A stretch of 64,000 nucleotides of DNA, from positions 65,306 to 129,305 of the forward strand of contig JAHDFH010000001.1 of NCBI GenBank assembly GCA_020628305.1, written 5' to 3'. Under the pieces are notes generated by a model. The model had not been told where the DNA came from. It saw only the letters and a program-made list of their open reading frames with translations, and searched no databases. Origin of the DNA: Acidimicrobiales bacterium. GTDB lineage: Bacteria; Actinomycetota; Acidimicrobiia; Acidimicrobiales; SZUA-35. A program made the position numbers and the translations under genes. Below, in pieces: positions 36,614 through 58,910 of this stretch (positions are counted from its first letter, which is position 1; each line of letters starts with the position of its first letter).

Positions 36614-36644
36614 CGCGGCATTAGGGACGCGGTCACTTGCCGCG
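36614..36644 (+). terminator. hairpin after nuoN (related to the G-loop hairpin family); candidate terminator
   Basis: CGCGGCA-TTAGGGACGCGGTCACT-TGCCGCG followed by TTTGG. It lies between convergent genes. Confidence 0.4.
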
Positions 36645-36649
36645 TTTGG

Positions 36650-36946
36650 CTACAGCGGCGGATACTGCTTCTTCACCAGCAGCCAACTGAGGTCGTCTTC
36701 GGTTGATGTTCTATTGGGTTTTTCATGACCGCAGCTGGTGCAGCGATGCAGAATGCGAAACTGATCTTTGGCGTCTACCTCGATACGGATCGGTTCCATC
36801 AGTCCCCGACAGCCACTGGAGCGGTCACCTGGTTCAACATCCACATGCAGAGACCAGAGACAACAAGGGCAGTGGTTTGTATAGCCATCGCCAACGACCT
36901 CTGATGCGCAGTTGCCGCACGTGAAGTTCTCTACAACGCGCTTCAC
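36650..36946 (-). CDS. RNHCP-domain zinc-ribbon protein
   Basis: FTCGNC...YTNHCPCCLWSLHVD...CTSCGH. GTG start immediately after the dus stop, with GGAGG upstream. Confidence 0.6.
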   Translation of the reverse strand: MKRVVENFTCGNCASEVVGDGYTNHCPCCLWSLHVDVEPGDRSSGCRGLMEPIRIEVDAKDQFRILHRCTSCGHEKPNRTSTEDDLSWLLVKKQYPPL

Positions 36947-38074
36947 TTAGCCTCCAGAGGCTGATGAATCGCCCTCAGGGTTGGCGATTAGATCATCAAA
37001 TGGGTCAGCAAGCCAGTTATCAGGCAACGCCACTTTCTGTGGGCCTCGGGTATGGCCCCTCATGTTTCGGTAGTTCTCTGCTGGGAGTTCGTGCAGCTCA
37101 AGTGTCCCGAGATGCGTTTCGAGTTCTTCGAGACTCTCGACTTTGCCGAGTCTGCCCCGAATCTCGCCACCAACGGGATAGCCCTTCAAATACCAGGCGG
37201 TGTGTTTGCGGAACTCGCGTATGCCTTTGTAGTCGCCAAACCATTCGATCAACTCCGAAGCGTGACGAACCATTAAGTCTGCTATTTCTAGAGTGTTCGG
37301 CGCTTTCGGTATCTCTTTACCTTTGAAAGCGGCAGCAAGTTGTCCAAACAGCCAGGGACGACCTAAACAACCTCGACCGATAACAACACCATCGCAGCCA
37401 GTTTCTGCCATCATTGCTAGAGCATCATCAACCACCCAGATATCGCCGTTTCCAAGCACTGGGATGGAGGTAACGGTCTCTTTGAGCTTTGCGATTGTGG
37501 ACCAATCAGCGCTTGGAGCGTAAAGTTGCTCAACGGTTCTGCCGTGGAGGGCTACTGCAGCGACACCTGAATCTTCAGCAACTTTGCCTGACTCTAGATA
37601 GGTTTCATGCTGAGCATCTATGCCAACCCGCATCTTTACTGTGACCGGAATTTCGCCGGCTGCTTGTACAGCATTTTCAACAATGCCCTTAAAGAGGTTA
37701 CGTTTGTAGGGGAGAGCACCGCCGCCTCCATTGCGGGTAACTTTGCGGACTGGGCAGCCAAAGTTGAGATCAATATGGTCGACTGCGTTAGTTTCAACCA
37801 ACATCGACACCGCCTTGTAGGCAATCTTGGGATCTACAACTGCTAGTTGAAGACTGCGAGGGCTCTCATCTGGCGCAAAATCAGCTAGGCGAGTGGTCTT
37901 TTCGTTCATCTCAACCAAAGCACGGGCCGAAATCATCTCAGATACATACAAACCAGCGCCGTAAGACCGGCAGATGCGGCGGAACGGCGAATTGGTAACT
38001 CCGGCCATCGGAGCCAACACCACAGGAATATCAACCTCAATAGGTCCAATTTTAAGCAGTGAAGAACGCACCAC
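36947..38074 (-). CDS. dus: tRNA-dihydrouridine synthase
   Basis: LAPMAGVTNSPFRRICR, DLNFGCPVRKV, ALHGRT. Confidence 0.9.
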   Translation of the reverse strand: MVRSSLLKIGPIEVDIPVVLAPMAGVTNSPFRRICRSYGAGLYVSEMISARALVEMNEKTTRLADFAPDESPRSLQLAVVDPKIAYKAVSMLVETNAVDHIDLNFGCPVRKVTRNGGGGALPYKRNLFKGIVENAVQAAGEIPVTVKMRVGIDAQHETYLESGKVAEDSGVAAVALHGRTVEQLYAPSADWSTIAKLKETVTSIPVLGNGDIWVVDDALAMMAETGCDGVVIGRGCLGRPWLFGQLAAAFKGKEIPKAPNTLEIADLMVRHASELIEWFGDYKGIREFRKHTAWYLKGYPVGGEIRGRLGKVESLEELETHLGTLELHELPAENYRNMRGHTRGPQKVALPDNWLADPFDDLIANPEGDSSASGG

Positions 38075-38090
38075 CTAATTGTAAAGGAAT

Positions 38091-38125
38091 ATCTGGACGT
38101 TGGGGACGGTACTAAGTGTCCAGAT
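38091..38125 (+). repeat. G-rich-loop hairpin repeat
   Basis: ATCTGGAC-GTTGGGGACGGTACTAA-GTCCAGAT (8-bp perfect stem) in the divergent dus/ybaK intergenic region. Confidence 0.7.
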
Positions 38126-38168
38126 TTGACTGCCTGTTAACTCATCGCCGAGACGTTAGCATTGCAAG

Positions 38169-38657
38169 ATGAGTGACCAAGTCAGAGAAGAGCTTCAAGC
38201 CAAGCTAGATGAGTTTCAGATTGAAGCAAAGATCATGGATTGTGACCCAGAGTTGGCGGACACAGCCCAGTTCTGCGAGCATTACGGCTTCGAACTAGAT
38301 GATTCAGCCAACACAATACTGGTTGCGTCAAAGACTCAGCCCAAACAGTTTGTTGCGTGCATGGTTCTAGCCACGGACCGGTTGGATGTTAACTCCAAGG
38401 TGAGGAAGAAGATGGAGGTCAGGAAGGTATCTTTTGCCTCAGCAGAAGAGACTAAAGAGCTCACTGGCATGGAAATTGGAGGAGTAACTCCTATCGGGTT
38501 AGATACAAGCTTAAAGCTGTGGATTGATGAGAGAGTTCTCGCCAGAGAGAAGGTTGTAGTCGGCGGGGGAAGCAGAAGTCATAAGGTGATTCTTGCAGCT
38601 AGCGAGCTGCTCAAATTACCAGCCGCTATTGTGGCCGATATTACCAAGGCGACATAG
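38169..38657 (+). CDS. YbaK/aminoacyl-tRNA-editing (deacylase) domain protein
   Basis: About 160 aa with the MEIGGVTPIG motif and a typical YbaK/ProX-like layout. Confidence 0.65.
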   Translation: MSDQVREELQAKLDEFQIEAKIMDCDPELADTAQFCEHYGFELDDSANTILVASKTQPKQFVACMVLATDRLDVNSKVRKKMEVRKVSFASAEETKELTGMEIGGVTPIGLDTSLKLWIDERVLAREKVVVGGGSRSHKVILAASELLKLPAAIVADITKAT

Positions 38658-38734
38658 GGGGCGCTGCGTCCCGTAGCACTAGAGATTCTCCCTCGGCATC
38701 AAGCCTTTGGGGAATGACGTGGTGGTCAGGTGTG
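38655..38734 (+). repeat. bipartite intergenic repeat (A-like + module B), copy 2
   Basis: TAGGGGGCGCTGCGTCCCGTAGCAC followed by TAGAGATTCTCCCTCGGCATCAAGCCTTTGGGGAATGACGTGGTGGTCAGGTGTG. Confidence 0.8.
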
Positions 38735-38777
38735 TTGCGGGAGCTCGAACGCATCCGACTGAGATGGTCAACTCGCG

Positions 38778-39476
38778 TTACAACCCCAGCAAGAACTCAG
38801 CAGTATCACCATCCACATCACCGATACTGGGAGCTTCGGCCAGCGGTCCAACGATCGCTTCTGTAATCTCAAGGGCTGCGACATAGCTGCCAGTCTCTGA
38901 CGCGTGGGAGCCATCGGCGTTATATAGCTCAAGGTCGCTTCCACTAGCTTTCACTGCTGCGAAAGCATCGCCTGCACGGGCGATCTTTCCACCGTTATCA
39001 GAAGCGATTCTCTCATACGATGCAGACACAGCATTTTGCATCGATTCATAAGTAGGGAATCCTTGATCTGGGAAGCCATTCTTCCATCCCCAGGTCTGAT
39101 ACCAAATAACTTGAGCTCCAGCTCGGTCAGCTAAGTGGTCTAACTGCTGAGCCGCAGGGTAAGTATTGACCGAAGCAAATTGAGGGATAGCAGGTGCAAC
39201 CGACTGCTCCTGAAAGATGATTATGTCGTAGGTTCCAGAGTTGATCGTTTCAACAACCTCATCGTTCTCAGCATGTTCATGAAGGTATGTGCCATTTGGA
39301 GCGATCATATGGGTGTCGATAGAAACCCCATTAGCGTCAGCAATCTCTTCAACCATGTCTGGCATGTCGTTGTACCAGGTGTGACTGTTGCCTATAAATA
39401 ACACGTTGTGGTCAGCTTCGCCGCCGCACCCCGCCAGTGCCATCAGAGCTATCAAGCCCAGCAGTAATCGCATCAT
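38778..39476 (-). CDS. SGNH/GDSL-like hydrolase lipoprotein
   Basis: Lipobox LMALAGCG. Block I VLFIGNSHT. C-terminal DGSHAS (Asp/His block). Confidence 0.5.
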   Translation of the reverse strand: MMRLLLGLIALMALAGCGGEADHNVLFIGNSHTWYNDMPDMVEEIADANGVSIDTHMIAPNGTYLHEHAENDEVVETINSGTYDIIIFQEQSVAPAIPQFASVNTYPAAQQLDHLADRAGAQVIWYQTWGWKNGFPDQGFPTYESMQNAVSASYERIASDNGGKIARAGDAFAAVKASGSDLELYNADGSHASETGSYVAALEITEAIVGPLAEAPSIGDVDGDTAEFLLGL

Positions 39477-39507
39477 GTGAGTGTATCGGCAACATATTTA
39501 CTTCTTT

Positions 39508-39539
39508 TAGGACGGTAGGGACGGTCCTATCCGGCTTTT
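39508..39539 (+). repeat. module A repeat, solo copy
   Basis: TAGGACGGTAGGGACGGTCCTATCCGGCTTTT. Contains the hairpin TAGGAC...GTCCTA. Confidence 0.75.
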
Positions 39540-39603
39540 ACCCGCCGATCAGTCTCGTTCCAGCTTTGGCCTGATCGATCAAGATCGACTAGGCTCTGTT
39601 GCA

Positions 39604-40950: not shown

Positions 40951-42017
40951 CCTTCGACATAAGAAGTTGGAGAATCAGCTTGAGGTAGAAGAAGTTCTGG
41001 TTCGGCCGTTTCATCGGCAATGTCAAGACTCCAAATGTCCCACTCTGGTTGGAGCTGGGTTTCGGCATCTTCATCAACATGTAGCGCATAGGCAATGGTG
41101 TCATCGTTGAGCCATTCGACTTGGTCATCGACACTACGAGTCTCAGCTAGGCGAGTGGTCTCGTTCGTTTCTAGGTTGAGGGCAACAAGTTCAAAGCCAT
41201 TAGCGGTTGACTCTTTGAACACTAAGGTCTTGCCATCGGGAGATAGCGATGGGCAAGATCCAATCAGATCGGTCAACTCGAGGGTCTTGTCAGCGTAGGA
41301 TCCTTTGACAATTCGGATCTCTTCTTCGTTGCCCCAAGTGACGTAGAAATCGCCATCGTCTCCCCATGTCACGCCCCAGAATTTGCCTTTGATATCAGCC
41401 AGGAGTGCTGCGTCTTCGTCTGAGTAGTCAAAGTCACTAAGTCGAACTCTGTTTAGAGGGTCATCGGTTTCGAATACTTCAATAACAGTCACGAATGAAC
41501 CAAGATCCTGATAACCAGTGCCGCTGGCGAACGAAGTGTAGCTTGCGTACTGCCCGTCGTCGGATATTCGAGCTCGGGAGGGAAGTGTTACACCCCAAGA
41601 CAGAACATCGTTGTTGACGTTCTCCGATACATCATACAAAGTTGCTTGATAGCGCTGCTCTCCAGCCTTCCATAGGCACAGCCCGTAGTTTCCGGAGGCG
41701 TGGTAGCGTTCGCAACGGACGTTTGGAACAAAAGTTCTGGATCCGTCGGAGTTAATGGTGATTACTCGACCGTAGTCATCACCCGGGATGCGGTTAATTG
41801 CCAGCTGGTCGCCATCTTGTAGAACAACGACTTCTTCGGGTTCGGTATCGACTGCTGCTAGCTGGTCTACAAACTCGCCTGCTCTTCGCTCAGCTTCAGC
41901 ATTACGGGTTGATAAATCCTTTGATTGCTGAACGAAAGTGAAACCAACATAGCCAATGGCAACTGTCATGACAAGAGCTGAGATGGTGGCGAGTTTTCTG
42001 TTAGGAGACATCCGCAA
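40947..42017 (-). CDS. membrane-anchored beta-propeller (TolB/WD40-like) protein, hypothetical
   Basis: N-terminal TM helix. Repeated beta-strand pattern including SLSPDGKTLVF. Confidence 0.4.
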   Translation of the reverse strand: MRMSPNRKLATISALVMTVAIGYVGFTFVQQSKDLSTRNAEAERRAGEFVDQLAAVDTEPEEVVVLQDGDQLAINRIPGDDYGRVITINSDGSRTFVPNVRCERYHASGNYGLCLWKAGEQRYQATLYDVSENVNNDVLSWGVTLPSRARISDDGQYASYTSFASGTGYQDLGSFVTVIEVFETDDPLNRVRLSDFDYSDEDAALLADIKGKFWGVTWGDDGDFYVTWGNEEEIRIVKGSYADKTLELTDLIGSCPSLSPDGKTLVFKESTANGFELVALNLETNETTRLAETRSVDDQVEWLNDDTIAYALHVDEDAETQLQPEWDIWSLDIADETAEPELLLPQADSPTSYVEG

Positions 42018-45114: not shown

Positions 45115-45143
45115 ATTTTGAGTTCTCTGAGATGAAAGCTAGT

Positions 45144-46275: not shown

Positions 46276-46975
46276 GGAAGAAGTAGCAGAAGTCCCTAAA
46301 GTCGACCACATCCGTCAGGAGCTCCTTGAAGAAGTCAAAAACCAGCTTGGCTCTGCTGTGATCGGCGAGCACCTTAGCCCTGGGAAAGACTTGTGGGTGA
46401 GAGTGCAGACGCAGAAATGGGCGGAGTTCGCACGAGTGATGAAAGAAAAGCTGGGGTTTGAGTTCTTTGATTTTCTCTCGTGTATCGACTGGAAAGATTC
46501 TCCCTATGGTAGAAGCTTGAGCTCTGCTGTTGATATTGAGCTAGGTAACACAGAACAAGAACCGCCCGCTGAAGCTCTAAGTACTGGAGTTGCCGGTGGA
46601 GATACCCGCTTTCAGATGATCGCCCGAGTCTACTCAATCAAGCACAACGTTGGAATTACCGTCAAGGCTGATCTTGGCGAATCAATGGCCATCGAGTCTT
46701 GGGCTGGGATTTTCCATGGTGCGGCGTGGCACGAACGCGAAGCTTACGAGATGTTTGGCGTTTCGTTTCAAGGTCACGACAACCTACGCAACATCTATTT
46801 GCCAACAGGTTTTGAGGGCAATCCGCTGCGTAAGGACTATCCGTTAATGGCTCGACTTGTAAAGCCTTGGCCAGGAATCGTAGATGTTGAACCTATGCCG
46901 GAGGTTGCCGAGCCAGCCAAGACGACACCGTCGGGCGCCTCAACTCAAAACCCAGACGCTGGAGGGGCTCCATGA
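46262..46975 (+). CDS. nuoC: NADH-quinone oxidoreductase subunit C, second operon
   Basis: [37 protein letters not shown]. Confidence 0.85.
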
Positions 46976-48144
46976 CGGCACAAATGGACCCTCAGCATGC
47001 TCAGTATGTTGCCGCTCAGGTAGCTGATGCTCGTGTTAATGTGGAGCTCGAAACCGAGGGGATGACCCTTAACATTGGCCCTCAGCACCCAGCTACCCAC
47101 GGAACTTTACGAATTATCGTACGCCTAGATGGCGAGCAGGTAACTGAAGTTGATCCCGTTCTTGGTTACATGCACAGAGGTTATGAAAAGCTCGCCGAGG
47201 TGCGTACCTATCCACAGGTCACAACCTTGATCAACCGTATTGACTGGGTTGGAAGCTTTGCTAACGAAGTACCATTTGTACTAGCTTCTGAGCAGCTCAT
47301 GGATATCGAAGCGCCAGAGCGGGCGCAATATATTCGCACGATTCTGTTTGAGCTGGGACGAATTGCCAACATTGTCCTCTTCCTTGGAGATATGGGAGTG
47401 CAACTCGGGGCTGTGACTCCAATGTTTTATGCTTTGCGAGACCGAGAGCTTATTCTCAATCAGATCGAGTCAGCTACAGGTGGGCGTTTTCATCCCAACT
47501 TCAACCGCATCGGGGGTGTAAAGGATGATCTTCCAGCGGGTTGGCTCCAGGACACAAAGTCAGCCATTGCAAAGATCATGAGTTTCTGCGATCAAGCGGA
47601 GGGTCTAATTGTTGGCAATGAGATCTTCCAGGAGAGAACCAGGGGTGTTGGTGTTATTCCGGCTGATGTTGCCCTCACTTACGGTCTAACCGGAGCAAAC
47701 GTCAGAGCATCAGGAGTTGACTGGGATCTTCGTCGAGACTCTGAGTCTCCTTTGCCTTATGACAAGGTGGATTGGAAAGTTTGGACCCACCCAGATGGTG
47801 ATTCTTTTGCTCGTTACTGGGTGCGCCTTCAAGAAGTAAGAGAGTCGTGTCGGATTGTAGATCAGCTTCTTGACTCGCTTCCGTCTGGACCAATAATGGC
47901 TAAAGTGCCGCGCATTATTAAAGTTCCGGCGGGCGAAGCCTACGTAGCAACCGAAAACCCTCTGGGTGAGATGGGTTACTACGTTGTGTCCAAGGGGGGA
48001 CTAGAACCGTTCCGTGTCAAGATTCGCACAGCAAGTTTCTCTAACATGTCAATCACGCCTTGGCTCCTTAAAGGTGCCTACATGCCAGATGTTGTAACCA
48101 TTTTGGCGTCGCTGTATTTCATTCTGGGAGATCTGGATCGCTGA
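46972..48144 (+). CDS. nuoD: NADH-quinone oxidoreductase subunit D, second operon
   Basis: NIGPQHPATHGTLRI, YFILGDLDR. Confidence 0.9.
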   Translation: MTAQMDPQHAQYVAAQVADARVNVELETEGMTLNIGPQHPATHGTLRIIVRLDGEQVTEVDPVLGYMHRGYEKLAEVRTYPQVTTLINRIDWVGSFANEVPFVLASEQLMDIEAPERAQYIRTILFELGRIANIVLFLGDMGVQLGAVTPMFYALRDRELILNQIESATGGRFHPNFNRIGGVKDDLPAGWLQDTKSAIAKIMSFCDQAEGLIVGNEIFQERTRGVGVIPADVALTYGLTGANVRASGVDWDLRRDSESPLPYDKVDWKVWTHPDGDSFARYWVRLQEVRESCRIVDQLLDSLPSGPIMAKVPRIIKVPAGEAYVATENPLGEMGYYVVSKGGLEPFRVKIRTASFSNMSITPWLLKGAYMPDVVTILASLYFILGDLDR

Positions 48145-49190
48145 TGCTCGGATTAGAACTCGCATACTGGCAGGAAACCATCATTAAGTTAGTTCTAGCG
48201 TTTGGCGTGGTCCTGGTTCCAGCTGGCGCAACTGTCTATCTTTATCTGTTCAAGATGGTTTCGTTTATGCAGAGCCGGCTAGGGCCAATGGAAGCAGGGC
48301 CTTACGGTTCGCTTCAATTGCTTGCTGAGCTTGGAAAATCGGCGCAGAAAGAAGATATTTTCCCAGAAAGGGCTGACCGATTTGTTTTTGCGGCGGCGCC
48401 CTATGTTGTGATTATTTCCTCGTTTCTGCTCGCTCTAGTGGTTCCATTCGGCCCTGATGCAATGTTCGTCAATTTCGATACAGGTATCTTTTTTGCTTTA
48501 GCAGTTTCGTCTGTTTCAGTTATTGGTGTTCTGATGGCCGGTTGGGCAAGCGCCAGTAAGTATTCGCTCATGGGTGGTCTGCGTGCTGCTGGCCAGTTGA
48601 TAGCGTATGAACTTCCTCTCGTTTTAGCGGTAGTTGGTGTTGTTATCCAGGCTGGCACATTGAATATGTCCAAGATCGTTGAAGCTCAGATCGAGGGTGA
48701 GATATTTGGCTGGGGAGCAATTGGTAACCCCTTCATTCTTACCCAGTTCGTTGCTTTCTTTATCTTCTTCATAGCTGTTCAAGCTGAGCTCACCCAAACC
48801 CCTTTCGACATGCCAATTGCGGAATCTGAACTTGTAGCGGGGTACATGACCGAGTACTCAGGGTTCCGTTTCCTCATGTTCTTTATTGGTGAGTTCGCAA
48901 CGGCAAACATTTTTGCCTTTCTCGGAGCGACCTTATTCTTAGGAGGCTGGTCTGTTCCTCCATTCGTCACCGATCTAATTGGTATAGATCCATACTCAGA
49001 AGCGTTCAACTACATCGGGCCAATCGTGATGATCACAAAGATGCTGCTCATCACCTTTGTGATTTACTGGGTGCGTTTCACCTACCCACGTTTTCGTGAA
49101 GATCAGCTGCAACGCTTTGCGTGGAAAGTTCTCATTCCATTGGCATTAGCCAATATCGCTGTAACCGGTGTAGCAAAGGTGGTTTTTTAA
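48144..49190 (+). CDS. nuoH: NADH-quinone oxidoreductase subunit H, second operon
   Basis: [49 protein letters not shown]. Directly follows nuoD, with no nuoEFG. Confidence 0.9.
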
Positions 49191-49191
49191 G

Positions 49192-49692
49192 ATGGCAATT
49201 CTTCCAGGTGTTATCAAAGGCCTTGGTATCACCTTTAAAGAGCTAACCAAAACCATGGTGAAGGGTGCTGAAACTGTTCAATATCCTCACGAGAAGGAAG
49301 ATCCAGCTCCACGCGCTCGAGGAGTTATTGCACTTCATGAAGACAACTGCACTTCGTGTATGTTGTGTGCCCGAGAGTGCCCAGATTGGTGCATATACAT
49401 AGAAGGCCACAAGGAGCTAGCACCGCCAAGGCGTGCCGGTGGTAAACCTCGCTCTGTTAACAAACTCGATCGTTTCGATATCGATTATTCACTTTGCATG
49501 TATTGCGGAATTTGTGTCGAGGTTTGTCCTTTTGAGGCATTATTCTGGTCACCAGAGTACGAATACTCTGAGCCAAAGATTGCTGACTTGCTTCACGACA
49601 AGTCTCGTTTGGGGCAGTGGATGGAAACCGTTCCAGAATTTGAACCATATGAGGCTGGCACTGAAGTCAAACTAAAGAAGGTGCCACGTTGA
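49192..49692 (+). CDS. nuoI: NADH-quinone oxidoreductase subunit I, second operon
   Basis: [12 protein letters not shown] and [12 protein letters not shown]. Confidence 0.9.
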
Positions 49693-50228
49693 ACCTTCTT
49701 CTCCAAGCCGAAACAGCGCTATCTGAAACAGGTGAATGGATTGCTAATGGTTTCTTCTATCTCATAGCAACTGTTGCTGTGGTGGCAGCGCTGAAGATGG
49801 TCTCTACAAAAAATGTTGTTCACGCAGCTCTGTATCTGTTGGTTGTGTTGTCGGCTGTGGCCGCAACATATGTGATTCTGGGTGCAGAGTTTGCGGCCGC
49901 TACGCAAGTTCTTGTTTATCTTGGAGCCATTATGGTGTTGATGCTCTTCGGTGTGATGTTGACTAGAGCTAAGCTTGGTAATGATGAAGAGCTAGATCAT
50001 GACCAACGTTGGATTGGGTCCTTGGTAGGTGTGGGAATGTTGGCTGTTATGAGCTATTCGTTATGGGAGTTCTACCAAGGTGAGCGCCTTCCCAGCGAAC
50101 AATCGCCGCAACGTACTCAAGAAGTAGCTTTGGAGATTTTTTCAACCTATATCGTTGCATTCGAAGCGCTGTCGGTTCTTCTGTTGGCAGCATTGATCGG
50201 CGCAATTGTTGTAGCGAGGAAGGATTAG
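49689..50228 (+). CDS. nuoJ: NADH-quinone oxidoreductase subunit J, second operon
   Basis: Operon position. [21 protein letters not shown]. Confidence 0.8.
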
Positions 50229-50232
50229 TCGG

Positions 50233-50532
50233 ATGTTTTTGAATCAGTTCCTTCTCTTTGCCGCAGTGCTCTTCTCGATTGGTGTTTACGGAGTTCTAAC
50301 CCGACGCAACGGTGTGTTAGTCCTAATGTCAATTGAGCTTATTTTGAACGCTGTAAATATCAATCTGATTGCCTTTGCTGCCTACAACCAGGATCTATCT
50401 GGTCAGGTCTTTGCTCTGTTCATAATTGCTGTTGCAGCAGCAGAAGTTGGTGTGGGGCTAGCGATTGTGTTGTTGATCTATAGAAACAGACGAAGCATTG
50501 ATATCACCGAGCAGAATGCGTTGAGGGGGTAG
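50233..50532 (+). CDS. nuoK: NADH-quinone oxidoreductase subunit K, second operon
   Basis: 99 aa. [11 protein letters not shown]...[12 protein letters not shown]. Confidence 0.9.
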
Positions 50533-50535
50533 CCG

Positions 50536-52818
50536 ATGTTGGGTGCAGAACTAGTAACACAAACCCCTTGGATTTTCGAAACCGTGTGGCTGATTCCTGG
50601 AATCATGGCGGCATCTTTCATGCTGATTCTGTTCTTTGGTAAACGCCTACCTCAAAAGGGTGCCGAGATTGGAATAGCCGCAATAATCGCGGCCTTTGCC
50701 CTATCTAGTTTTGCCACATACACATGGATTAGCGAAATCAACTCTGGTTCTGAGGCAGAATCTTATGAAGCTCTACCAGCAGCTACAGCCCCCATTGGAT
50801 TTGGCTCAGCTGTAGTTGAACCCATTGCATTCGCAGGGGAAGAGGGCGTAGTTCGGGGAGCGCCGATCATCACCGAATATGAGTGGTTTAGTGTTACTGA
50901 TCCGATGCAAGAGTCGGTTGCGGCCAAGTCCAGTGCACCTGCGATTGGTATTGGTACTTGGGTTGATGGCCAGTCGATAATGATGTTGTTCGTAGTGACC
51001 TTCATTTCCATGTTGGTACACATTTACTCAACTGAGTATGTGTCAGGTGATCGTCGCTACACCCACTATTTCGCCTTCTTATCGCTTTTCACAGCCTCCA
51101 TGCTGTTCATGGTTCTTTCAACTAGCACCATTCAGTTAATTGTCGGCTGGGAGCTAGTCGGTGTTTGCTCGTTTGCATTGATTGGTCACTGGTGGGAGGA
51201 CAAACCAAACTCAGACGCAGCACTGAAAGCCTTCTTGACTAACCGTGTTGGTGACATTGGCTTGTTAGTCGGCATGATAATTCTGTTCTTCGCAGCTGGT
51301 AACTCCTTCAGTATCGAAAAGATCAATCAAATGGCCGTTTTATCTGGTGAAGACGGGGGTATCTCCCAAGGTGTCTTGCTAGCAGCTTCTCTCTGTCTGA
51401 TGGCTGCTGTGATGAGCAAGTCTGGTCAGTTTATTCTCCATACTTGGTTGCCAGATGCTATGGCTGGTCCAACTCCAGTTTCGGCTCTGATTCACGCAGC
51501 CACAATGGTTGTTGCTGGCGTATATATGATTGGCCGCCTTTACCCGGTGTTCTGGGAAGGTCTGTCAATCTACGGATCTAACATCAATGCAATGGCTTTC
51601 ATTGGTGGTCTAACTACCGTTGGTGGCGGGCTGTTGGCTTTCGTGCAGCGTGACATCAAGAAGGTCCTGGCGTATTCGACCGTGTCGCAGCTTGGTTACA
51701 TGGTTATGGCTTTAGGCGTGGGAGCCTATACAGCCGGCATGTTCCATCTCTTCACCCACGCGTTTTTCAAAGCCTGTTTGTTCCTTGGTGCAGGGTCTTT
51801 GTCGCATGCCTGTCACCACAGCTTCGACATGAAAAAGGACATGGGTGGGTTGCGTAAAAAGATGCCACTCACGTTCGCTACCTTTATGATCGGATCGCTT
51901 GCTTTGGCTGGTCTTCCACCGCTAGCTGGCTTTTGGAGCAAGGACGAAATCTTGGTTGGAGCCGGCGTCTGGCCTGGCACTGAAGGTAACGGAACGTACC
52001 ACATTCCATTTATCTTTGGTTGCATCACCGCAGCGCTGACAGCAGCGTACATGACACGAGTGATATGGCTAACTTTCTTTGGTAAGTACCGCGGTCACGA
52101 AGAACCACACGAGTCCAGCTGGCGTATCAGAATGCCGCTGGTCCTGCTCGCTGGGTTTGCGACGGTGGCAGGTTTTCTAAATATGCCATCTGGTTTTGTT
52201 TCAGCAGTTGGCCTGCCGAAGAGCTGGGCTCACAAGTTTGAAGATTGGGTAGAGCCAGAAGGCGTTTCAACTTTCGTGTCTAAAGCCCAAAACGGTTTTA
52301 CTCACGCTAAGCCAAGCCTTTCGCTGGCGATTGTCGCATCTGGACTGGTTCTTATCTCAATCGCTGTTGTCTGGACTTACTACAAGAAATTGTTTGCCAA
52401 GGATGAAATGGCGACCGAGTACACAGACGGTTTTATGTCTCGTATGCCGTTGCTTGCAACAGGTCATAAGATCCTTACCAATAAGTACTATCTTGATCAT
52501 CTCTACACTGACAAGATTGCTGGAACTACCAAAGGTTCTTTGGCAAAGGTCTCATATTGGTTTAACCAAAACGTGTTGGATGCCATCGTCAACTCTGCTG
52601 GTTCAGTATCTGCAGCCGCTGGTCGAGCGCTTTACAAGCATTTCGATCAGGGTGTTATTGATAACGCAGTTAATTCTAGCGCTGGAGCCGCATCGTCTTC
52701 GGGCGGGGTATTGCGCAGACTGCAATCTGGTCAGGTGCGTCAGTACGCATCGCTGATGTTTGGTGCAGCAGTTTTGATAGCGGTTGTATTCGTATTCGCT
52801 CTCGGAGAACGAGGTTAG
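50536..52818 (+). CDS. nuoL: NADH-quinone oxidoreductase subunit L, second operon (long, 760 aa)
   Basis: WELVGVCSFALIGHWW, WLPDAMAGPTPVSALIHAATMV, LAGFWSKDEIL. Large loop insertion after the second TM helix. Confidence 0.9.
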   Translation: MLGAELVTQTPWIFETVWLIPGIMAASFMLILFFGKRLPQKGAEIGIAAIIAAFALSSFATYTWISEINSGSEAESYEALPAATAPIGFGSAVVEPIAFAGEEGVVRGAPIITEYEWFSVTDPMQESVAAKSSAPAIGIGTWVDGQSIMMLFVVTFISMLVHIYSTEYVSGDRRYTHYFAFLSLFTASMLFMVLSTSTIQLIVGWELVGVCSFALIGHWWEDKPNSDAALKAFLTNRVGDIGLLVGMIILFFAAGNSFSIEKINQMAVLSGEDGGISQGVLLAASLCLMAAVMSKSGQFILHTWLPDAMAGPTPVSALIHAATMVVAGVYMIGRLYPVFWEGLSIYGSNINAMAFIGGLTTVGGGLLAFVQRDIKKVLAYSTVSQLGYMVMALGVGAYTAGMFHLFTHAFFKACLFLGAGSLSHACHHSFDMKKDMGGLRKKMPLTFATFMIGSLALAGLPPLAGFWSKDEILVGAGVWPGTEGNGTYHIPFIFGCITAALTAAYMTRVIWLTFFGKYRGHEEPHESSWRIRMPLVLLAGFATVAGFLNMPSGFVSAVGLPKSWAHKFEDWVEPEGVSTFVSKAQNGFTHAKPSLSLAIVASGLVLISIAVVWTYYKKLFAKDEMATEYTDGFMSRMPLLATGHKILTNKYYLDHLYTDKIAGTTKGSLAKVSYWFNQNVLDAIVNSAGSVSAAAGRALYKHFDQGVIDNAVNSSAGAASSSGGVLRRLQSGQVRQYASLMFGAAVLIAVVFVFALGERG

Positions 52819-52843
52819 AAATGTTAGATGTTAGGAACTTACC

Positions 52844-54379
52844 ATGACTGATTTCTTAAACGACTGGGGCATCACCCTCATGGTGTTCACACCGCTGGTT
52901 GCAGCTTTTGCAATGATGCTGCTTCCGGGTAAACCAGACATAATCCACAAACAGGTTGCACTGGGAGCGTCAACCCTTACCGCTGTCTGGGGTGCTCTGT
53001 TGTTGTTCAACTTTGACTACGATTCAGCGTCGGTAATGCAGTTTGGTGTTGATCGCTCATGGATCGATGTTGTGAATGCACGGTATGACGTTGGTATAGA
53101 TGGCATATCGCTTCCACTGATTGCTCTGACGCTGTTCGTGGTGCCGCTTGTCATCCTTTACTCTTGGAATCATATTCCTAAACCCGGTAACGCCAAAGCG
53201 TTCCTTATCCTTACCCTGATTCTCCACACTGGTATGTTGGGAACGTTCGTTGCAAGAGATCTAGTTCTGTTCTTCGTTTTTTTCGAAGTTGTGCTTCTGC
53301 CAATGTATTTCATGATCGGTGTTTGGGGAGGGGAGCAGCGCCTCTATGCAGCAATAAAGTTCTTCCTCTACACCTTGTTTGGCTCTGCTTTGATGCTCGT
53401 ATCATTCCTAGCGCTGTACTGGTTGACCGGTTCAGAAACGTTCAACATGGCGCAACTAGCAGAGCTTGTCTCTACTTCAGATATCGCACTTGGCACTCAA
53501 GTTCTGATCTTTGGTGGCATGTTTATGGGCTTTGGAATCAAGGTGCCAATGTTTCCATTCCATACATGGCTGCCCGATGCGCACACTCAAGCACCGACGC
53601 AGGGTTCTGTAATTCTCGCAGCGGTACTCTTGAAGCTGGGGACCTATGGCTTCATCAGAATAGCGTTACCCATCTTGCCTGATGCGGCAGTTGAGTGGGC
53701 CCCTTGGATTGGTCTTCTAGCCGTGATTGGCATCATCTATGGCGCTCTGGGCTGCCTGGCACAGACAGATATGAAGCGCTTGATTGCGTTCTCATCTGTA
53801 GCGCATATGGGCTATGTGATGCTTGGAATCTCAACTCTCACGAGCTTCGGTATTTCTGCTGCAATCTTTGGCATGGTGGCTCACGGGCTTATCACTGGGA
53901 TGTTGTTCTTTATCGCCGGTTCGGTTAAGGATCGTTACCACACCCTTGAGATTAGTCGCCTTGGAGGTCTGCTTGTGCAGGCGCCACGCATGGGTTGGAT
54001 ACTTGGGTTCACCACGATGGCATCTCTCGGACTCCCTGGCTTGGCTGGCTTCTGGGGCGAGTTCCCAGCGATCTTGGCTGCCTACAACCCGGGTGGAGGA
54101 CTATCACAGCCGTTGTTCAGGGTTTACATGGTTGTGGCTGCTATTGGTACCGTTCTGGCAGCTGCTTACTTGCTGTGGCTGCTGCAGCGAACGGCTTTTG
54201 GTAACCCGTCGGAGGAGTTTGCTGATAACCCAGAGATCACAGATGCATCTAAATTGGAATACATATCCTGGGTACCATTTTTGATCATGATCGTGGTGCT
54301 CGGATTCGTGCCAGGACTAATTTTTGATGTTGCTGATGCTCCTGTTTCGGAGATGGCCGAAGTTTGGGTCGTTAAATGA
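52844..54379 (+). CDS. nuoM: NADH-quinone oxidoreductase subunit M, second operon
   Basis: HTWLPDAHTQAPTQGSVILAAVLLKLGTYG. Confidence 0.9.
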   Translation: MTDFLNDWGITLMVFTPLVAAFAMMLLPGKPDIIHKQVALGASTLTAVWGALLLFNFDYDSASVMQFGVDRSWIDVVNARYDVGIDGISLPLIALTLFVVPLVILYSWNHIPKPGNAKAFLILTLILHTGMLGTFVARDLVLFFVFFEVVLLPMYFMIGVWGGEQRLYAAIKFFLYTLFGSALMLVSFLALYWLTGSETFNMAQLAELVSTSDIALGTQVLIFGGMFMGFGIKVPMFPFHTWLPDAHTQAPTQGSVILAAVLLKLGTYGFIRIALPILPDAAVEWAPWIGLLAVIGIIYGALGCLAQTDMKRLIAFSSVAHMGYVMLGISTLTSFGISAAIFGMVAHGLITGMLFFIAGSVKDRYHTLEISRLGGLLVQAPRMGWILGFTTMASLGLPGLAGFWGEFPAILAAYNPGGGLSQPLFRVYMVVAAIGTVLAAAYLLWLLQRTAFGNPSEEFADNPEITDASKLEYISWVPFLIMIVVLGFVPGLIFDVADAPVSEMAEVWVVK

Positions 54380-55902
54380 TCTCATTTGATCTGCTAGCCA
54401 ACACGGAGCTCGCATTTGAGCGGCCAGCAATTGATTGGCATGCAGCTGCGCCTGAGCTTGTGCTTCTCGCTTGGGGTGCTTTGGTAACGCTTGTTGATCT
54501 TGTCTGGCTAGAAAAAGCCCGCCGGTTCATCCCAACACTCACAGGCTTTGGCTTTCTAGCTGCACTTATACCGGTAGTGACTCTTTGGGCAGATTCGGAT
54601 GCTTTGCCAAGGCAGATGTTTGATGGGGCTTATGTGACTGACGAACTTGCCCTTGTGTTCAAGGGGCTGTTCTTGTTGAGCGCTTATGTCGTTGTACTAT
54701 TGGGCGCTAACTATCTCAACGATGGCAATTACTATGATTCTGAGTTTTATCAGCTGATTTCTGCATCCGTGCTGGGCATGTTGATCATGGCATCAGCGAG
54801 AGACCTGGTGCCTATTTTCATTGCGATTGAGCTTGTTTCAATCCCGGCTTATCTGATGGCGGCGTGGCGTAAGAGAGACCTTAAATCGAACGAGGCTGGG
54901 CTGAAATATATGCTGATGGGTGTTTTCGCGTCGGCGATCATGCTTTATGGAATGTCGCTGCTTTACGGCATGGCTGGTAGTACCCAGATTTCGGCTATTG
55001 GAGAAGCTTTAACAGGGCTTAGTGACCGTCCACTGGTTATTCTTGGTGTGCTGTTTACGCTTATTGGTTTCGGTTTCAAGGTTTCGGCTGTGCCATTTCA
55101 CACATGGGCCCCCGATACTTATGAAGGTGCCCCAACTCCGCTCACAGCGTTCCTAGCGGTCGCATCAAAAACGGCAGGGTTTGTGGCGTTGTTGACGGTT
55201 ATTCTGATTGGCTTCGAATCTAAGTCAGAGCTTGTTGAGCCGTTCATGTGGGTGCTTGCTGCTGCCACTATGACCATCGGTAATCTGATTGCTCTACGTC
55301 AAACCAATATCGTTCGCATGCTTGCGTATTCTGGCGTAGCGCAAGCTGGCTACATGCTGGCTCCGTTGGCTGTGTACTCAGCGAATCCTGAGCTGTCTCG
55401 TTCAGCTGTAGTCAACTACCTGCTCATTTACGCAGCAATGAATCTGGGCGCTTTCGCAGTTGTGATTATCGCTGCACGCAAAACTAAGTCGGGGGAGATA
55501 TCGTCTTTTGGTGGCATGTTTCAGTACGCTCCAGGGTTGACCGTCGCCATGACGATCTTCTTATTCTCGCTTGCTGGGCTTCCACCTGTCGGGGGCTGGT
55601 TAGCCAAATGGAGGGTCTTTGAATCGTTACTCTTCTTTGGTGAAGGATCCACGGCACCAAGCCTTGCAGGAGTCTTACTAGCAGTGCTTGTTGCACTCAA
55701 CTCTGTAGTGGCAGCTTACTATTATCTGAGCGTTGCGAAGCAAATGTGGTTCATGCCTGCCGTCAACGATGACAACTCAACCATCAAGATCCCGTCAGCG
55801 CTCACCATAGCTTTGGCTATTGCAGTTGTCATCACCGTCGTCTCTGGCGTCACCAACCTCATGCCAGAGCTTTCCACCGCTGACTTCGGCTTAGGCCAGT
55901 AA
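54376..55902 (+). CDS. nuoN: NADH-quinone oxidoreductase subunit N, second operon
   Basis: FHTWAPDTYEGAPTPLTAFL. Confidence 0.9.
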   Translation: MISFDLLANTELAFERPAIDWHAAAPELVLLAWGALVTLVDLVWLEKARRFIPTLTGFGFLAALIPVVTLWADSDALPRQMFDGAYVTDELALVFKGLFLLSAYVVVLLGANYLNDGNYYDSEFYQLISASVLGMLIMASARDLVPIFIAIELVSIPAYLMAAWRKRDLKSNEAGLKYMLMGVFASAIMLYGMSLLYGMAGSTQISAIGEALTGLSDRPLVILGVLFTLIGFGFKVSAVPFHTWAPDTYEGAPTPLTAFLAVASKTAGFVALLTVILIGFESKSELVEPFMWVLAAATMTIGNLIALRQTNIVRMLAYSGVAQAGYMLAPLAVYSANPELSRSAVVNYLLIYAAMNLGAFAVVIIAARKTKSGEISSFGGMFQYAPGLTVAMTIFLFSLAGLPPVGGWLAKWRVFESLLFFGEGSTAPSLAGVLLAVLVALNSVVAAYYYLSVAKQMWFMPAVNDDNSTIKIPSALTIALAIAVVITVVSGVTNLMPELSTADFGLGQ

Positions 55903-55912
55903 CTATTGGTAA

Positions 55913-55936
55913 CCATTGGGGACAGGTCTCGGTCGT
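55913..55936 (+). repeat. direct repeat, copy 1, flanking orphan gene 55959-56609
   Basis: CCATTGGGGACAGGTCTCGGTCGT. Matches 56686-56710 except for one extra G. Confidence 0.8.
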
Positions 55937-55958
55937 CCAGCTAATTGGTGCCTTGATC

Positions 55959-56609
55959 TTATCTGCCAATGAACAGTCCAAGGTTGCTCTCTTTATTAAT
56001 CGGCCCTGGAATCACCAAGGTCGGCAGGTCGAAATCTTTGTACTTGATTGATGGAGTCATAGGTCTGTCGGAGTTAAAAATTGTTGGTCGCCTATTTGTG
56101 GTGACGCGAAGTGCGTAAACTGTGCGGCTGGTAGTTAGCCAAGGAACAGAGTGAAGAAAGTTGTTATCAAGGATGGCAGCGACAAACGGGAGCACAGATA
56201 CAAGTCCATGCATAGGTACGTCTCTTGGGGGGCTACTCATTGGTGCAACTGGGAGGAAGGGCAACAGGGGTTTTCTGAGTGGAACGAGCTCGAATAGTTC
56301 TTCATTTTGGACTACCTTAAAGCTTTTGCCTTTGGGAAAGTCGTTGGAGCTTGTCGGAACCAACACGGTCCCGGCAGGTTGTTCTGAGGAGTTTGGAATG
56401 GTGACGATAATTTGGAAATCTGACTTATCGTGGTGAACAATGATGTCGGTTAGTGGTCCAGTCGAGTTATAGATATCGAGTAGGGGTTCCACTCCAAACA
56501 GATCTTGAGCTAAAGCCCGCATGGCTTCTTCTAAACTGATTTGCCCAGAATCCAACAACTCTCGCAGATCGACTAGGAGTGCGTTACTGGTCACTTGTTT
56601 TTTCTGCAT
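55959..56609 (-). CDS. hypothetical protein (orphan)
   Basis: The ORF is open to TTG 56741 (260 aa), but its first 44 codons run through a copy of a noncoding-looking direct repeat (56686-56710). ATG 56609 is therefore preferred. No motif recognised. Confidence 0.4.
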   Translation of the reverse strand: MQKKQVTSNALLVDLRELLDSGQISLEEAMRALAQDLFGVEPLLDIYNSTGPLTDIIVHHDKSDFQIIVTIPNSSEQPAGTVLVPTSSNDFPKGKSFKVVQNEELFELVPLRKPLLPFLPVAPMSSPPRDVPMHGLVSVLPFVAAILDNNFLHSVPWLTTSRTVYALRVTTNRRPTIFNSDRPMTPSIKYKDFDLPTLVIPGPINKESNLGLFIGR

Positions 56610-56685
56610 CAATAGGTCCGCCTGGTCAACTTCTACGTTACCACGGTTCAGCGAAGTCCTAAACGCGTGTTGAGGAGGCCCATAG

Positions 56686-56710
56686 CCATTGGGGGACAGG
56701 TCTCGGTCGT
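56686..56710 (+). repeat. direct repeat, copy 2, flanking orphan gene 55959-56609
   Basis: CCATTGGGGGACAGGTCTCGGTCGT. Confidence 0.8.
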
Positions 56711-56876
56711 TGCGTAAAGTTTCGCCGGAGGACGGCACCAATCCGCAATCGTTGGATGTAGTGTCATTCAGCGAGGCAGAGGCCTCTGCACACCACCATC
56801 ACAAAACGGCGTCTTGTGAGGCTTATTGTTGAGGGGGGCTGTAACGAATATGGGTTTGGGTCGTCAAAGGATGTTC

Positions 56877-56916
56877 GAGATCCTCTGCGATCGTCGCGGC
56901 ATTGAGGGTGACGGCG
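56877..56916 (+). repeat. module B repeat, degenerate copy
   Basis: GAGATCCTCTGCGATCGTCGCGGCATTGAGGGTGACGGCG. It shares the GAGATCCTC head and the GAGGGTGACGG tail. Confidence 0.45.
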
Positions 56917-56929
56917 CTGATATTTGGGT

Positions 56930-57754
56930 TTACTCGTCTCGAAGTAGATCGTTCAATGCTGTTTTAGCTCTGGTTTGAGCATCAACGGTCTTGACAATAA
57001 CTGCAGCGTAGAGGCTGTGGCTACCATCTTTAGAAGGTAGCGAACCTGGCACAACAACTGAGCCTGATGGCACTCGACCGTACGTTATTTCGCCAGTCTC
57101 TCGGTTGAAGATCTTGGTTGACTGTCCAATGAAGACGCCCATTGAAAGAACTGATCCTTCTTCAACTATTACACCTTCAACGACCTCTGAACGAGCTCCA
57201 ATAAAGCAGTTGTCTTCAATAATGGTTGGGGATGCTTGAAGTGGCTCTAACACGCCACCAATTCCTACACCACCTGAAAGGTGAACGTTCTTGCCAATTT
57301 GTGCGCAGCTGCCAACTGTGGCCCAAGTGTCGACCATGGTGCCTTCATCGATGTAGGCACCAATGTTTGCATAGCTTGGCATGAAAACAACGTTAGGTCC
57401 GGCATAGACACCTCGGCGTACGTGAGCGTTTGGAACAACTCGTGTTCCTTCAGCTGCAAATCGCTCTTGGGTGTAGTCTGCATACTTGAGAGCTACTTTG
57501 TCGAAATACTTGGTGTGGCCAGCATCAATGAGTTGGTTGTCGTGTAAACGAAATGAGAGTAGAACAGCTTTTTTAGCCCACTCGTTAACTTGCCAGCCAG
57601 AATCTGTTGGCTCGGCTACTCGAAGATCACCAGACTCAAGCTGGGCGATAACAGAATTAACAGCATCTAGTTCTGGACCAGGACCTGCAGATAAGCCATC
57701 TCTGGCTTCCCAAGCTGCCTCAATAGTTGCCTGAAGTTCTGTATTGTCTGCCAT
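56930..57754 (-). CDS. dapD: 2,3,4,5-tetrahydropyridine-2,6-dicarboxylate N-succinyltransferase
   Basis: 274 aa with a hexapeptide-repeat core: [78 protein letters not shown]. Confidence 0.9.
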
Positions 57755-57790
57755 TGCATGCCTTTCGTAACGATTGACTCTGAGTCTATC

Positions 57791-57819
57791 GGGACATTGG
57801 GGACGGGGGTAGATGTCCC
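57791..57819 (+). repeat. G-rich-loop hairpin repeat
   Basis: GGGACAT-TGGGGACGGGGGTAG-ATGTCCC in the divergent dapD/lipoprotein intergenic region. Confidence 0.7.
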
Positions 57820-57881
57820 AACTAGCCCCGTCAAAGTTGGGTTGACATCAGTACGTCCCGCAGTACAACTACACTTATGGG

Positions 57882-58877
57882 GTGCGGAAACTTGTTCTAG
57901 CAATATGCGTTTCAACCATCGCCTTAGCGTGTGGTGAATCTGGCGAAGTGGCTCTTGAGACACAGTCTTCGTTAGTAACCACGCCGGATGCTGGTGAAGA
58001 AAATCTTTCTGAAAAACCTGGCAGTAGCTCTAGTGCGAACGATCAGACTACAATCTCGATCTCGACAACTCTTGATACCCAACAGTTGACTTCATCCTCG
58101 AGCACATCGTCATCGACCTCGGCAGTTGCACCCACCACAACAGCGACGACTGTAACAAGCAGCACAGCAGGCACAGCTAGCCCAGTCGCTGGCGGCTCTG
58201 GATCCGACTCATACTCAATCTCTAATATTCCCGGCGGCAAAGTATTGAGTGTTGACTATGCAACAGCCAATCTCGGAACTTCAACAAGTCGCTGTTCTGT
58301 GGCTTCTATTAACGCTAACTGGATGACTACAGCAACCAAAGACACGGCTAGCCCGAATCACTTGGGTATTGCTGTTGTGGACGGTGTAGTTATCCAAGGC
58401 ACCGACCCTGAGTACAGGGGAGTGTTTGGAGAACGAGTCACTTCTTTAAGCAGCAACGTAACTGACGACTGGTCCGGAAAGACGATGGTCAGTAGAACCC
58501 TGCGTAAAGGAAACTCGATTATTGAGAATCATTATGCGTGGTACACAACGGATACTTCAGGATTCAGCTGGGCAGTGTCTGGAGTGCCGCTTGTTGTAGA
58601 TGGAGAATATGATCCGAATCTGTCTACCTCAGCGCAAAGTAACTACACCTATGGTGCTGGGAATCACTCATTCATTGCGGTAAATCCGAACGGAACGCTT
58701 TCGTTTGGAGCGACGAACTCGCTGACAGCAAGGGCGCTGGCCGATCTCTTAGTTGCCCAAGGCAACGTTGATGTAATGATGTTAGACGGTGGCGGGTCGA
58801 CAGAGCTCAACATCGGCGGGCAACCTGTGGTAGCTGGTACTTCACGCAAACCAATCTGGTTTGGCATGGGCTGCTGA
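57882..58877 (+). CDS. secreted lipoprotein, phosphodiester glycosidase (NAGPA)-like domain
   Basis: Lipobox TIALACG. Ser/Thr-rich linker. C-terminal MMLDGGGSTEL motif. Confidence 0.5.
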   Translation: MRKLVLAICVSTIALACGESGEVALETQSSLVTTPDAGEENLSEKPGSSSSANDQTTISISTTLDTQQLTSSSSTSSSTSAVAPTTTATTVTSSTAGTASPVAGGSGSDSYSISNIPGGKVLSVDYATANLGTSTSRCSVASINANWMTTATKDTASPNHLGIAVVDGVVIQGTDPEYRGVFGERVTSLSSNVTDDWSGKTMVSRTLRKGNSIIENHYAWYTTDTSGFSWAVSGVPLVVDGEYDPNLSTSAQSNYTYGAGNHSFIAVNPNGTLSFGATNSLTARALADLLVAQGNVDVMMLDGGGSTELNIGGQPVVAGTSRKPIWFGMGC

Positions 58878-58880
58878 AGA

Positions 58881-58910
58881 TGGGACAATTTACCCCGTCC
58901 CCATTGTCCA
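58881..58910 (-). repeat. G-rich-loop hairpin repeat (inverse orientation)
   Basis: The reverse strand reads GGACAAT-GGGGACGGGGTAA-ATTGTCC. Confidence 0.7.

Follow-up and report, generated by a model that had tools for sequence, protein, structure and literature searches.

Four dispersed hairpins in an Acidimicrobiales contig as probable repeats of a Y1 transposase-associated family

In this study, we analyzed four short hairpins in a 64,000-nt stretch of DNA (hereafter the window) from an Acidimicrobiales bacterium (assembly GCA_020628305.1, contig JAHDFH010000001.1, positions 65,306 to 129,305). These hairpins are probably non-autonomous repeats of the repetitive extragenic palindrome (REP)/terminal inverted repeat (TIR) type that belong to a family found across phyla, and whose cognate enzyme would be a single-stranded DNA transposase of the Y1 (HUH) class from the RAYT/TIRYT branch, i.e., PF01797 with a C-terminal helix-turn-helix (HTH). 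We consider them to be selfish mini-elements; the data do not support a role in gene regulation. An earlier interpretation made from the letters of the window (the sequence-only reading) had described a hairpin family with a conserved G-rich loop, which could bind a protein, act in regulation at the RNA level or be a mobile mini-element.

Hairpins in the window

The window contains four good copies of the hairpin, three on the plus strand and one on the minus strand, and all of them share the architecture GGAC-NN-TGGGGACGG-N8-GTCC. In each copy, a stem of 6-11 bp encloses a 13-nt loop that begins with GGGGACGG. Copy 1 (33079-33107, +), GGGACA-tt-GGGGACGGGGTCA-tt-TGTCCC, is located inside nuoL (open reading frame (ORF) 31489-33426) and encodes GTLGTGSFVP. 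Copy 2 (38091-38125, +), ATCTGGACGTT-GGGGACGGTACTA-AGTGTCCAGAT, has an 11-bp stem including G-T pairs and a 13-nt loop, folds at -5.6 kcal/mol (z -2.2) and lies between the divergent genes dusB (36947-38074, -) and ybaK-like (38169-38657, +). Copy 3 (57791-57819, +), GGGACATT-GGGGACGGGGGTA-GATGTCCC, starts 37 nt from the start codon of dapD (56930-57754, -) and ends 63 nt upstream of a lipoprotein ORF. Copy 4 (58881-58910, -), GGACAAT-GGGGACGGGGTAA-ATTGTCC, has its G-rich loop on the minus strand and is found approximately 4-6 nt past the stop codon of the lipoprotein gene (58877) and 16 nt before a Methyltransf_28 gene (58926-59888, +). Copies 2-4 are present in the sequence as the earlier reading had described them, and gene calls agree with the genes it had named at the two divergent sites (dusB/ybaK-like and dapD/lipoprotein, the latter with a NAGPA domain). 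Copy 1 had been overlooked, though it is equally good.

The conserved loop core that had been proposed was evident for the 10-mer GGGGACGGGG, which occurs three times in the window versus 0.09 expected (none of 100 shuffles reached three), but not for the 7-mer GGGACGG alone, which is not enriched (6 versus 4.4 expected).

Association of the hairpin with Y1 transposase genes

An exact scan of genomes of 185,579 species with the pattern GGACNNTGGGGACGGN8GTCC (17 specified bases) yielded at least 115 loci, whereas approximately 70 matches are expected by chance for the whole collection by our own estimate. PF01797 (Y1_Tnp, IS200-like) was found twice among the flanking ORFs in the Pfam search, and all-against-all blastp and tblastn revealed four homologous Y1 genes, 34-45% identical to each other, each bracketed by hairpins: in Gudongella (L085), a member of Bacillota (L105), Coriobacteriaceae (L037) and Flexilinea (L088). 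With four in the at least 115 hairpin-bearing loci listed, Y1 genes are far fewer than repeats.

The HUH motif NHVH and the tyrosine motif RY(I/V)HNNP are conserved in the four proteins. PF01797 covers residues 13-123, and a weak HTH_23, HTH_31 or HTH_38 match is present at residues 222-260 of these 248-277 aa proteins. The family model NF047646 ('REP-associated tyrosine transposase') gave 69-89 bits against a cut-off of 80, and NF033573 (IS200) matched weakly in one of the four proteins tested. Among solved structures, E. coli TnpA-REP (4ER8, E 1.5e-5) was the sole relative. A phmmer search of the loci with an IS200 TnpA query gave no match, either because the family is too distant or because the query was imperfect. 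Judged by its domain architecture, the Y1 protein apparently belongs to TnpA-Y1 subclass 2.1 of Quentin et al.

The first set of loci (L001-L115) was picked with a window-derived pattern. An independent set of 80 metagenome loci (L120-L199) was taken by protein similarity alone and is free of the resulting bias. An exact GGGGACGG-core hairpin was present within 400 bp of the Y1 gene in 54 of the 80 loci. Where flanks were available, an upstream hairpin occurred in 36 of 70 loci and a downstream hairpin in 38 of 64. The orientation was near-absolute, with 41 upstream hairpins on the plus and one on the minus strand, and 44 downstream hairpins on the minus and four on the plus strand; the median distance to the start codon was 51 nt for upstream hairpins, and that to the stop codon was 6 nt for downstream ones. 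In its home arrangement, the element has the G-rich loop on the coding strand upstream of the gene (approximately 50 nt) and on the opposite strand downstream (approximately 6 nt). The GGGGACGGGG(T) loop variant, as found in the window, flanks the Y1 gene in three of these loci (L138, L186 and L196).

Two features of the downstream end were also observed. The downstream hairpin and the 3' end of the Y1 gene overlap (negative distances) in several loci of the protein-selected set, and in L105 the Y1 ORF (7016-7846) reads through two downstream hairpins into a repetitive tail (..GQKEPSPVSETGQKEPSPLSS).

Covariation of the stem and a covariance model of the family

According to the sequence-only reading, the stems differ in sequence while pairing is maintained. 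This is only weakly visible in the window, where GGAC/GTCC is present in all four stems, but it is well borne out across genomes. We collected 102 distinct 33-mers centered on the core near Y1 genes, without pairing as a selection criterion, and scored a 10-bp stem with a 13-nt loop. Paired cells amounted to 68.5%, compared to 42.9% in shuffled sequences and 31-40% in slid controls, and the covariation score was 0.632, compared to 0.206 (reached by none of 500 shuffles at the observed level) and 0.12-0.18, respectively. Stem pairs 5-9 were paired in 71-88% of sequences and used all four Watson-Crick types. The loop GGGGACGGTTCTN was nearly invariant among the 102 sequences, GGGGACGG itself being invariant in 102 of 102 by construction of the set. 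From Firmicutes to Actinobacteria and Chloroflexi, the 13-nt loop GGGGACGG(TTCTN or GGTNN) is conserved and the 6-12 bp stem covaries freely. This free variation and covariation of the arms argues for intrastrand pairing, since a duplex-bound dimer would conserve the arms.

A covariance model, which the earlier reading had proposed as a check, was built solely from the protein-selected set (model R1) and searched against the window with filters off and a 128-kb search space. The four window hairpins ranked first to fourth: copy 3 (57789-57821, +; 21.5 bits, E 6.4e-5), copy 2 (38092-38124, +; 19.2 bits, E 4.4e-4), copy 4 (58880-58912, -; 17.8 bits, E 1.5e-3) and copy 1 (33077-33109, +; 17.5 bits, E 1.9e-3). 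The next hit had 12.8 bits (E 0.1). In addition, copy 1 is identical in 26 of 29 positions to a hairpin in the Coriobacteriaceae locus (L037, 4905-4937) that starts 4 nt past the Y1 stop codon.

Occurrence of the hairpin in other genomes

Among the matches listed, the hairpin occurred in at least six phyla. Multiple copies within single genomes were seen among these matches in Lachnospiraceae, Coriobacteriia, Propionibacteriales, Micrococcales, Syntrophomonadaceae, Tissierellia, Gemmatimonadota and Chloroflexi, with several loci each from one Coriobacteriaceae metagenome-assembled genome (MAG), Micropruina sonneratiae, a termite-gut Micrococcales MAG and several Lachnospiraceae. Many of the listed matches were inverted doublets separated by 15-25 nt, and many were located at contig ends. 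The two unspecified stem positions of the search pattern were paired with their partners in 62 of 120 cases, versus approximately 14% expected. Similarly, 160 of the 265 GGGGACGG cores in the listed loci sat in a stem scoring at least 5, compared to approximately 5-30% for unrelated shuffles of this 8-mer. Other copies had quite different stems (GTGACA, GACGTGAA, GGAAC, TGTCAA), and the core variant GGGGACAG was present in the Flexilinea copies. The flanking ORFs were unrelated housekeeping genes, with 152 Pfam families among 103 ORFs.

Several variants of repeat structure were noticed in these loci. In several Firmicutes (L074 at approximately 409-440 on the minus strand, L032, L034 at approximately 100-130 and L018 at approximately 3535-3550), the hairpin is directly preceded by 2-3 direct repeats of 9 nt (GGGACANTG) that consist of the 5' arm and TG, a pattern that suggests slippage or staggered recombination at the 5' side of the element. 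In Oribacterium (L052 3714-3774, L075 4913-4973 and L097 5286-5344), the same 13-nt loop is carried on very long stems of 23-24 bp (GTAGCAGTTCAGCCGGTGGACCAT...), and a larger palindromic unit encloses the hairpin. A Micrococcales MAG (L031, 5769-5889) has five head-to-tail 30-nt units, each with TGGGGACGGTTCT, and this is a tandem array rather than a set of dispersed hairpins.

An in-frame copy in nuoL

Copy 1 is contained in an in-frame insertion of 13 codons (39 nt, approximately 33079-33117) in the C-terminal third of NuoL. We aligned 13 NuoL homologs (approximately 47-53% identical), the named ones being from Acidimicrobiia. In all 13 homologs, the alignment gap falls exactly at GTLGTGSFVPASG, directly after a conserved VY, which identifies the nuoL copy as an in-frame 39-nt insertion. 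The extra 13 residues of this NuoL thus come from an inserted repeat and do not represent a functional motif specific to the lineage. Rickettsia palindromic elements (RPEs) and REPs are likewise known to have in-frame copies within genes (PMC3733652).

Among the functions proposed by the sequence-only reading, a mobile mini-element is the one that fits these observations: inverted hairpins flank the Y1 gene in many genomes, copies are dispersed by unrelated housekeeping genes, and one copy lies in frame in nuoL.

Alternative explanations

The hairpins might instead be RNA elements (a terminator, attenuator, mRNA stabilizer or protein-binding site) that regulate adjacent genes. We consider this unlikely, though it survives better than the other alternatives. 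Many copies in Lachnospiraceae and Clostridia have a stop codon a few nt before them and a T-run after them; window copy 4 also lies 4-6 nt past a stop codon, and classical REPs are known to stabilize or terminate transcripts (PMC3733652, PMC12306157). However, 26 copies in tandem gene contexts were sense and 18 were antisense, 24 were nearer the upstream stop and 20 nearer the downstream start, and copies between convergent genes (15) were as frequent as those between divergent genes (15). The positional preference relative to gene starts that the earlier reading had suggested looking for was therefore not found. In the window, two copies lie between divergent genes, one is in coding sequence and copy 4 runs antisense to its gene. 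In all four, the loop is 13 nt long and a T-run is lacking. Folded as free DNA or RNA, these copies have low stability, at -4.4 to -5.6 kcal/mol (z -0.4 to -2.2), and a terminator scan made no call on them. Rfam gave no match for the hairpins either: a ZTP riboswitch was the sole match in the window at the gathering score, and an E-value scan of 12 hairpin-rich loci produced only spurious long-hairpin miRNA matches. In addition, the strict mirror arrangement around the transposase gene is a DNA-level signature. The proposal of RNA-level or promoter regulation thus finds no support in orientation, position, stem strength or Rfam, whereas that of a protein-binding hairpin is plausible only for a transposase substrate, a role that we infer. 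Any effect of the copies on neighboring genes would be incidental.

It is even less likely that the window copies are look-alikes, arisen by chance or by slippage of GGGAC-rich sequence and unrelated to the transposase-associated family. There are just four copies, no transposase gene is present in the window, and GGGACG-type sequence recurs there (in the repeat called Module A and in the loop of a hairpin at 36614, both discussed below). Nevertheless, a model derived from unrelated metagenome sequences picked exactly these four sites (E 6e-5 to 2e-3), with a 5-bit gap to the next hit; the loops of all four copies equal those of the family exactly in length (13 nt), one copy is 26/29 identical to a transposase-abutting hairpin, and the 10-mer count is approximately 30 times the expectation.

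The least probable explanation, that the motifs are operators for a host transcription factor reading GGGGACGG or GGGAC direct or inverted repeats in promoters, can draw on the two copies in the divergent promoter regions dusB/ybaK and dapD/lipoprotein and on a conserved core as short as an operator half-site, but the motif occurs by genes of 152 Pfam families in at least six phyla, which no single regulon fits, its arms covary rather than being conserved (intrastrand pairing, not dimer contacts on double-stranded DNA), one copy is inside nuoL, and its consistent partner is the transposase gene.

Comparison with known systems

The closest description of the hairpin family is TIRtron/TIRYT. Di Nocera et al. 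(2013, PMC3733652) describe inverted repeats with a common GGGGWSAS motif on both sides of TIRYT genes (the "TIRtron"), some of these repeats forming dispersed families. TIRYT corresponds to TnpA-Y1 subclass 2.1, which has a C-terminal HTH/Bac_DnaA_C domain, and no REP-like sequence was found beside those genes (Quentin et al. 2018, PMC6006769). In both cases, an HTH-bearing, RAYT-like Y1/HUH gene is bracketed by inverted repeats at fixed short distances, a G-rich octamer is present, and moderately abundant dispersed families, often dimers, occur in some genomes with a very wide and patchy distribution. Compared to the published GGGGWSAS, GGGGACGG fits GGGGWS but has G rather than A at position 7, whereas the Flexilinea variant GGGGACAG fits fully. 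On the other hand, the published TIRs were described as found 'rather than typical secondary structures', whereas here each repeat forms a stem-loop of its own, in which the 13-nt loop is invariant and the stems covary; moreover, this 64-kb window has no TIRYT gene. Bertels et al. (2017) found Group 1 RAYTs to be the largest group, present in 21 bacterial classes including Clostridia, with modest counts of flanking 16-mers; a repeat with a variable stem could give such a picture.

Classical REPs and REPINs with RAYT in Gammaproteobacteria are likewise short, dispersed, mainly extragenic palindromes that occur as singlets and inverted doublets, with a single-copy Y1 gene flanked inversely and occasional in-frame intragenic copies; TnpA-REP is the only solved homolog of the Y1 protein and NF047646 matches it. 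However, classical REPs have a GTAG tag at the 5' foot, a mostly conserved bulged stem and a small variable loop, and are species-specific. In the family described here, nothing is conserved outside the stem, the stem is variable, and a large loop is conserved across phyla. The Y1 protein (approximately 250-280 aa with an extra HTH) is also larger than E. coli TnpA-REP (165 aa). A conserved GTAG tag was not found at the 5' foot of 106 hairpins, and GTAG appeared only by chance in some loops, e.g., GGGGGTAG in copy 3. Membership in the classical GTAG REPs is ruled out by the absence of this tag.

The IS200/IS605 elements (IS608, ISDra2) share the Y1 HUH enzyme and are known to have subterminal hairpins recognized in single-stranded DNA. 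Their left- and right-end hairpins are on the same strand, whereas those described here are on opposite strands, and the Y1 gene is not multi-copy in the loci seen. Opposite-strand hairpins and repeats that far outnumber the gene rule out membership in this group. RPEs and the CGTC-tagged REPs resemble our elements as small palindromes inserted in frame into conserved protein genes without destroying them, but are unrelated in sequence and loop size. The CGTC REPs, considered because of GACG in the loop, have 8-9 bp stems, 4-5 nt loops and a terminal CGTC tag and lack a dedicated transposase (PMC3733652); their short loops and terminal tags exclude them. Intrinsic terminators, which have a G+C-rich stem, 3-8 nt loops, a T-run and sense orientation at gene ends, were excluded by the 13-nt loops, the lack of a T-run and the lack of orientation bias. 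A literature search with TGGGGACGG, CCCCGTCCCC and similar strings returned only unrelated eukaryotic primer and promoter matches.

A lipoprotein gene bounded by hairpins

The lipoprotein gene (57882-58877, +) encodes a 331-aa protein with a NAGPA phosphodiester glycosidase domain and is bracketed by copies 3 (+) and 4 (-). In the nearest recoverable relatives (L116-L119, DapD 76-80% identical), dapD is directly beside the Methyltransf_28 gene, with a spacer of 136-306 nt and no hairpin (9541-9846 in L116 and 2645-2780 in L117). In the window, this spacer (57755-58925) is 1171 nt, of which 1120 nt are taken by hairpin(+), lipoprotein gene and hairpin(-). The spacing of this unit, 63 nt upstream and approximately 6 nt downstream, mirrors the geometry of the Y1 gene (medians of 51 and 6). 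These observations suggest that the lipoprotein unit may be a hairpin-bounded insertion, although with low probability. More speculatively, it could be a TIRtron in which the transposase was replaced by cargo, i.e., a case of gene mobilization by hairpin pairs. Homologs of the lipoprotein elsewhere (L200-L203) are not flanked by hairpins, and only one unrelated R1 hit was found in 91 kb of these loci.

We also considered whether the hairpins are inverted repeats of an insertion sequence that encodes the 331-aa ORF; this was ruled out, as that ORF codes for a lipoprotein with a NAGPA domain instead of a transposase. The best named relatives of DapD are from Gammaproteobacteria (74% identity), and the homologs of NuoL and of the lipoprotein point to Actinomycetota or Acidimicrobiia. 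In L116, the dapD-methyltransferase spacer contains approximately five head-to-tail copies of a 22-nt unit (tttgtcattcccagctctcgat; approximately 9570-9700), which is unrelated to the hairpins.

Other features of the window

The sequence-only reading had regarded a hairpin at 36614-36644 as a looser relative of the family. It proved to be a different, stronger hairpin (-12 kcal/mol, z -3.3), with which the family covariance model has no match even at E<=10. It is located immediately after the nuoN stop codon and before a convergent RNHCP-domain gene (36650-36946, -), and looks like an ordinary terminator-type structure, separate from the GGGGACGG-loop family.

Kinship had also been proposed for Module A (GGTAGGGACGGTCC), based on a shared GGGACGG core. 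This is a separate repeat, GGTAGGG(A/G)CGGTCCTAT, with three copies (21465-21481, +; 39514-39530, +; 61700-61716, -) alignable over approximately 30 nt, where 0 copies are expected by chance. Two of the copies have the sense orientation and are located 4-5 nt past a stop codon, with CCGGCTTTT or a similar sequence after them. Module A scored only 10-11 bits (E 0.5-0.9) with the family model and was absent from all 204 other loci fetched, which speaks against the proposed kinship.

A ZMP/ZTP riboswitch (RF01750) was detected at 63187-63265(-) with 53.1 bits (gathering score 39), at the 5' end of a 506-aa ORF (61720-63240, -); the mechanical GTG start of this ORF probably over-extends into the riboswitch. 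In addition, the window has two separate NADH-quinone oxidoreductase-type gene clusters, at 29985-36613 (nuoL and nuoN confirmed) and 46972-55902.

Discussion

All window copies are orphans; nuoL harbors one of them, two occupy intergenic regions of divergent genes, and the last lies past a stop codon. Their mode of spread may be pictured by analogy with IS608 TnpA and E. coli TnpA-REP, whose mechanisms have been described (PMC6006769, PMC8266576). The hairpin would fold in single-stranded DNA, e.g., in the lagging-strand template at a replication fork, and the transposase would bind it by shape and read the loop sequence. By cutting and rejoining nearby single-stranded DNA, the enzyme could then place single hairpins and inverted doublets at new intergenic sites and, now and then, in frame within genes. 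The logic of recognition would be inverted compared to classical REPs, in that the enzyme would read an invariant 13-nt loop and leave the stem free to vary. Rolling-circle Rep proteins also read a conserved origin loop. If true, reading of an invariant loop could explain how one enzyme lineage carries the repeat across at least six phyla.

Several observations weigh against this interpretation of the window hairpins as transposase-dependent repeats. Just four copies can be seen. Stem length and the 3' half of the loop vary among them, and they may be old insertions that no longer move. A Y1 transposase homolog is absent from the 64-kb window (tblastn E<=1, window only). The likeness of L001-L115 to the window copies is partly built in by the search pattern. 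No conserved motif was found within 8 nt on either side of the stem in 106 hairpins, and no cleavage site, guide sequence or target duplication was identified. Finally, mobility is deduced from distribution and was not observed directly. The one close relative recovered, L204, matches the window at 100% identity, has all copies in the same places and is uninformative on insertion polymorphism.

It is conceivable, yet doubtful, that the hairpin is the long-missing cognate structure of subclass 2.1/TIRYT, the largest and most widespread RAYT-like group, and that, as a more speculative addition, hairpin pairs mobilize cargo. What is known in this system is a REP/TIR repeat of a Y1 transposase, and what is new is that each 'TIR' is a stem-loop with a conserved loop. 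In genome annotation, such hairpins are best treated as repeat elements instead of regulatory sites. They are also relevant to metagenomics, given that the elements are found at contig ends and so break metagenome assemblies.

REP/RAYT is the best example of a domesticated or co-evolving transposase with non-autonomous repeats, and its largest protein group is without a recognized structured substrate. Our analysis provides a compact candidate substrate for this widespread Y1 group, a 33-nt hairpin with an invariant loop, a covarying stem and fixed geometry, that can be searched for with R1 in any genome. Such a substrate would allow biochemical studies of how the Y1 enzyme chooses its DNA, as well as tracing of the horizontal spread of the enzyme plus its repeat between phyla.

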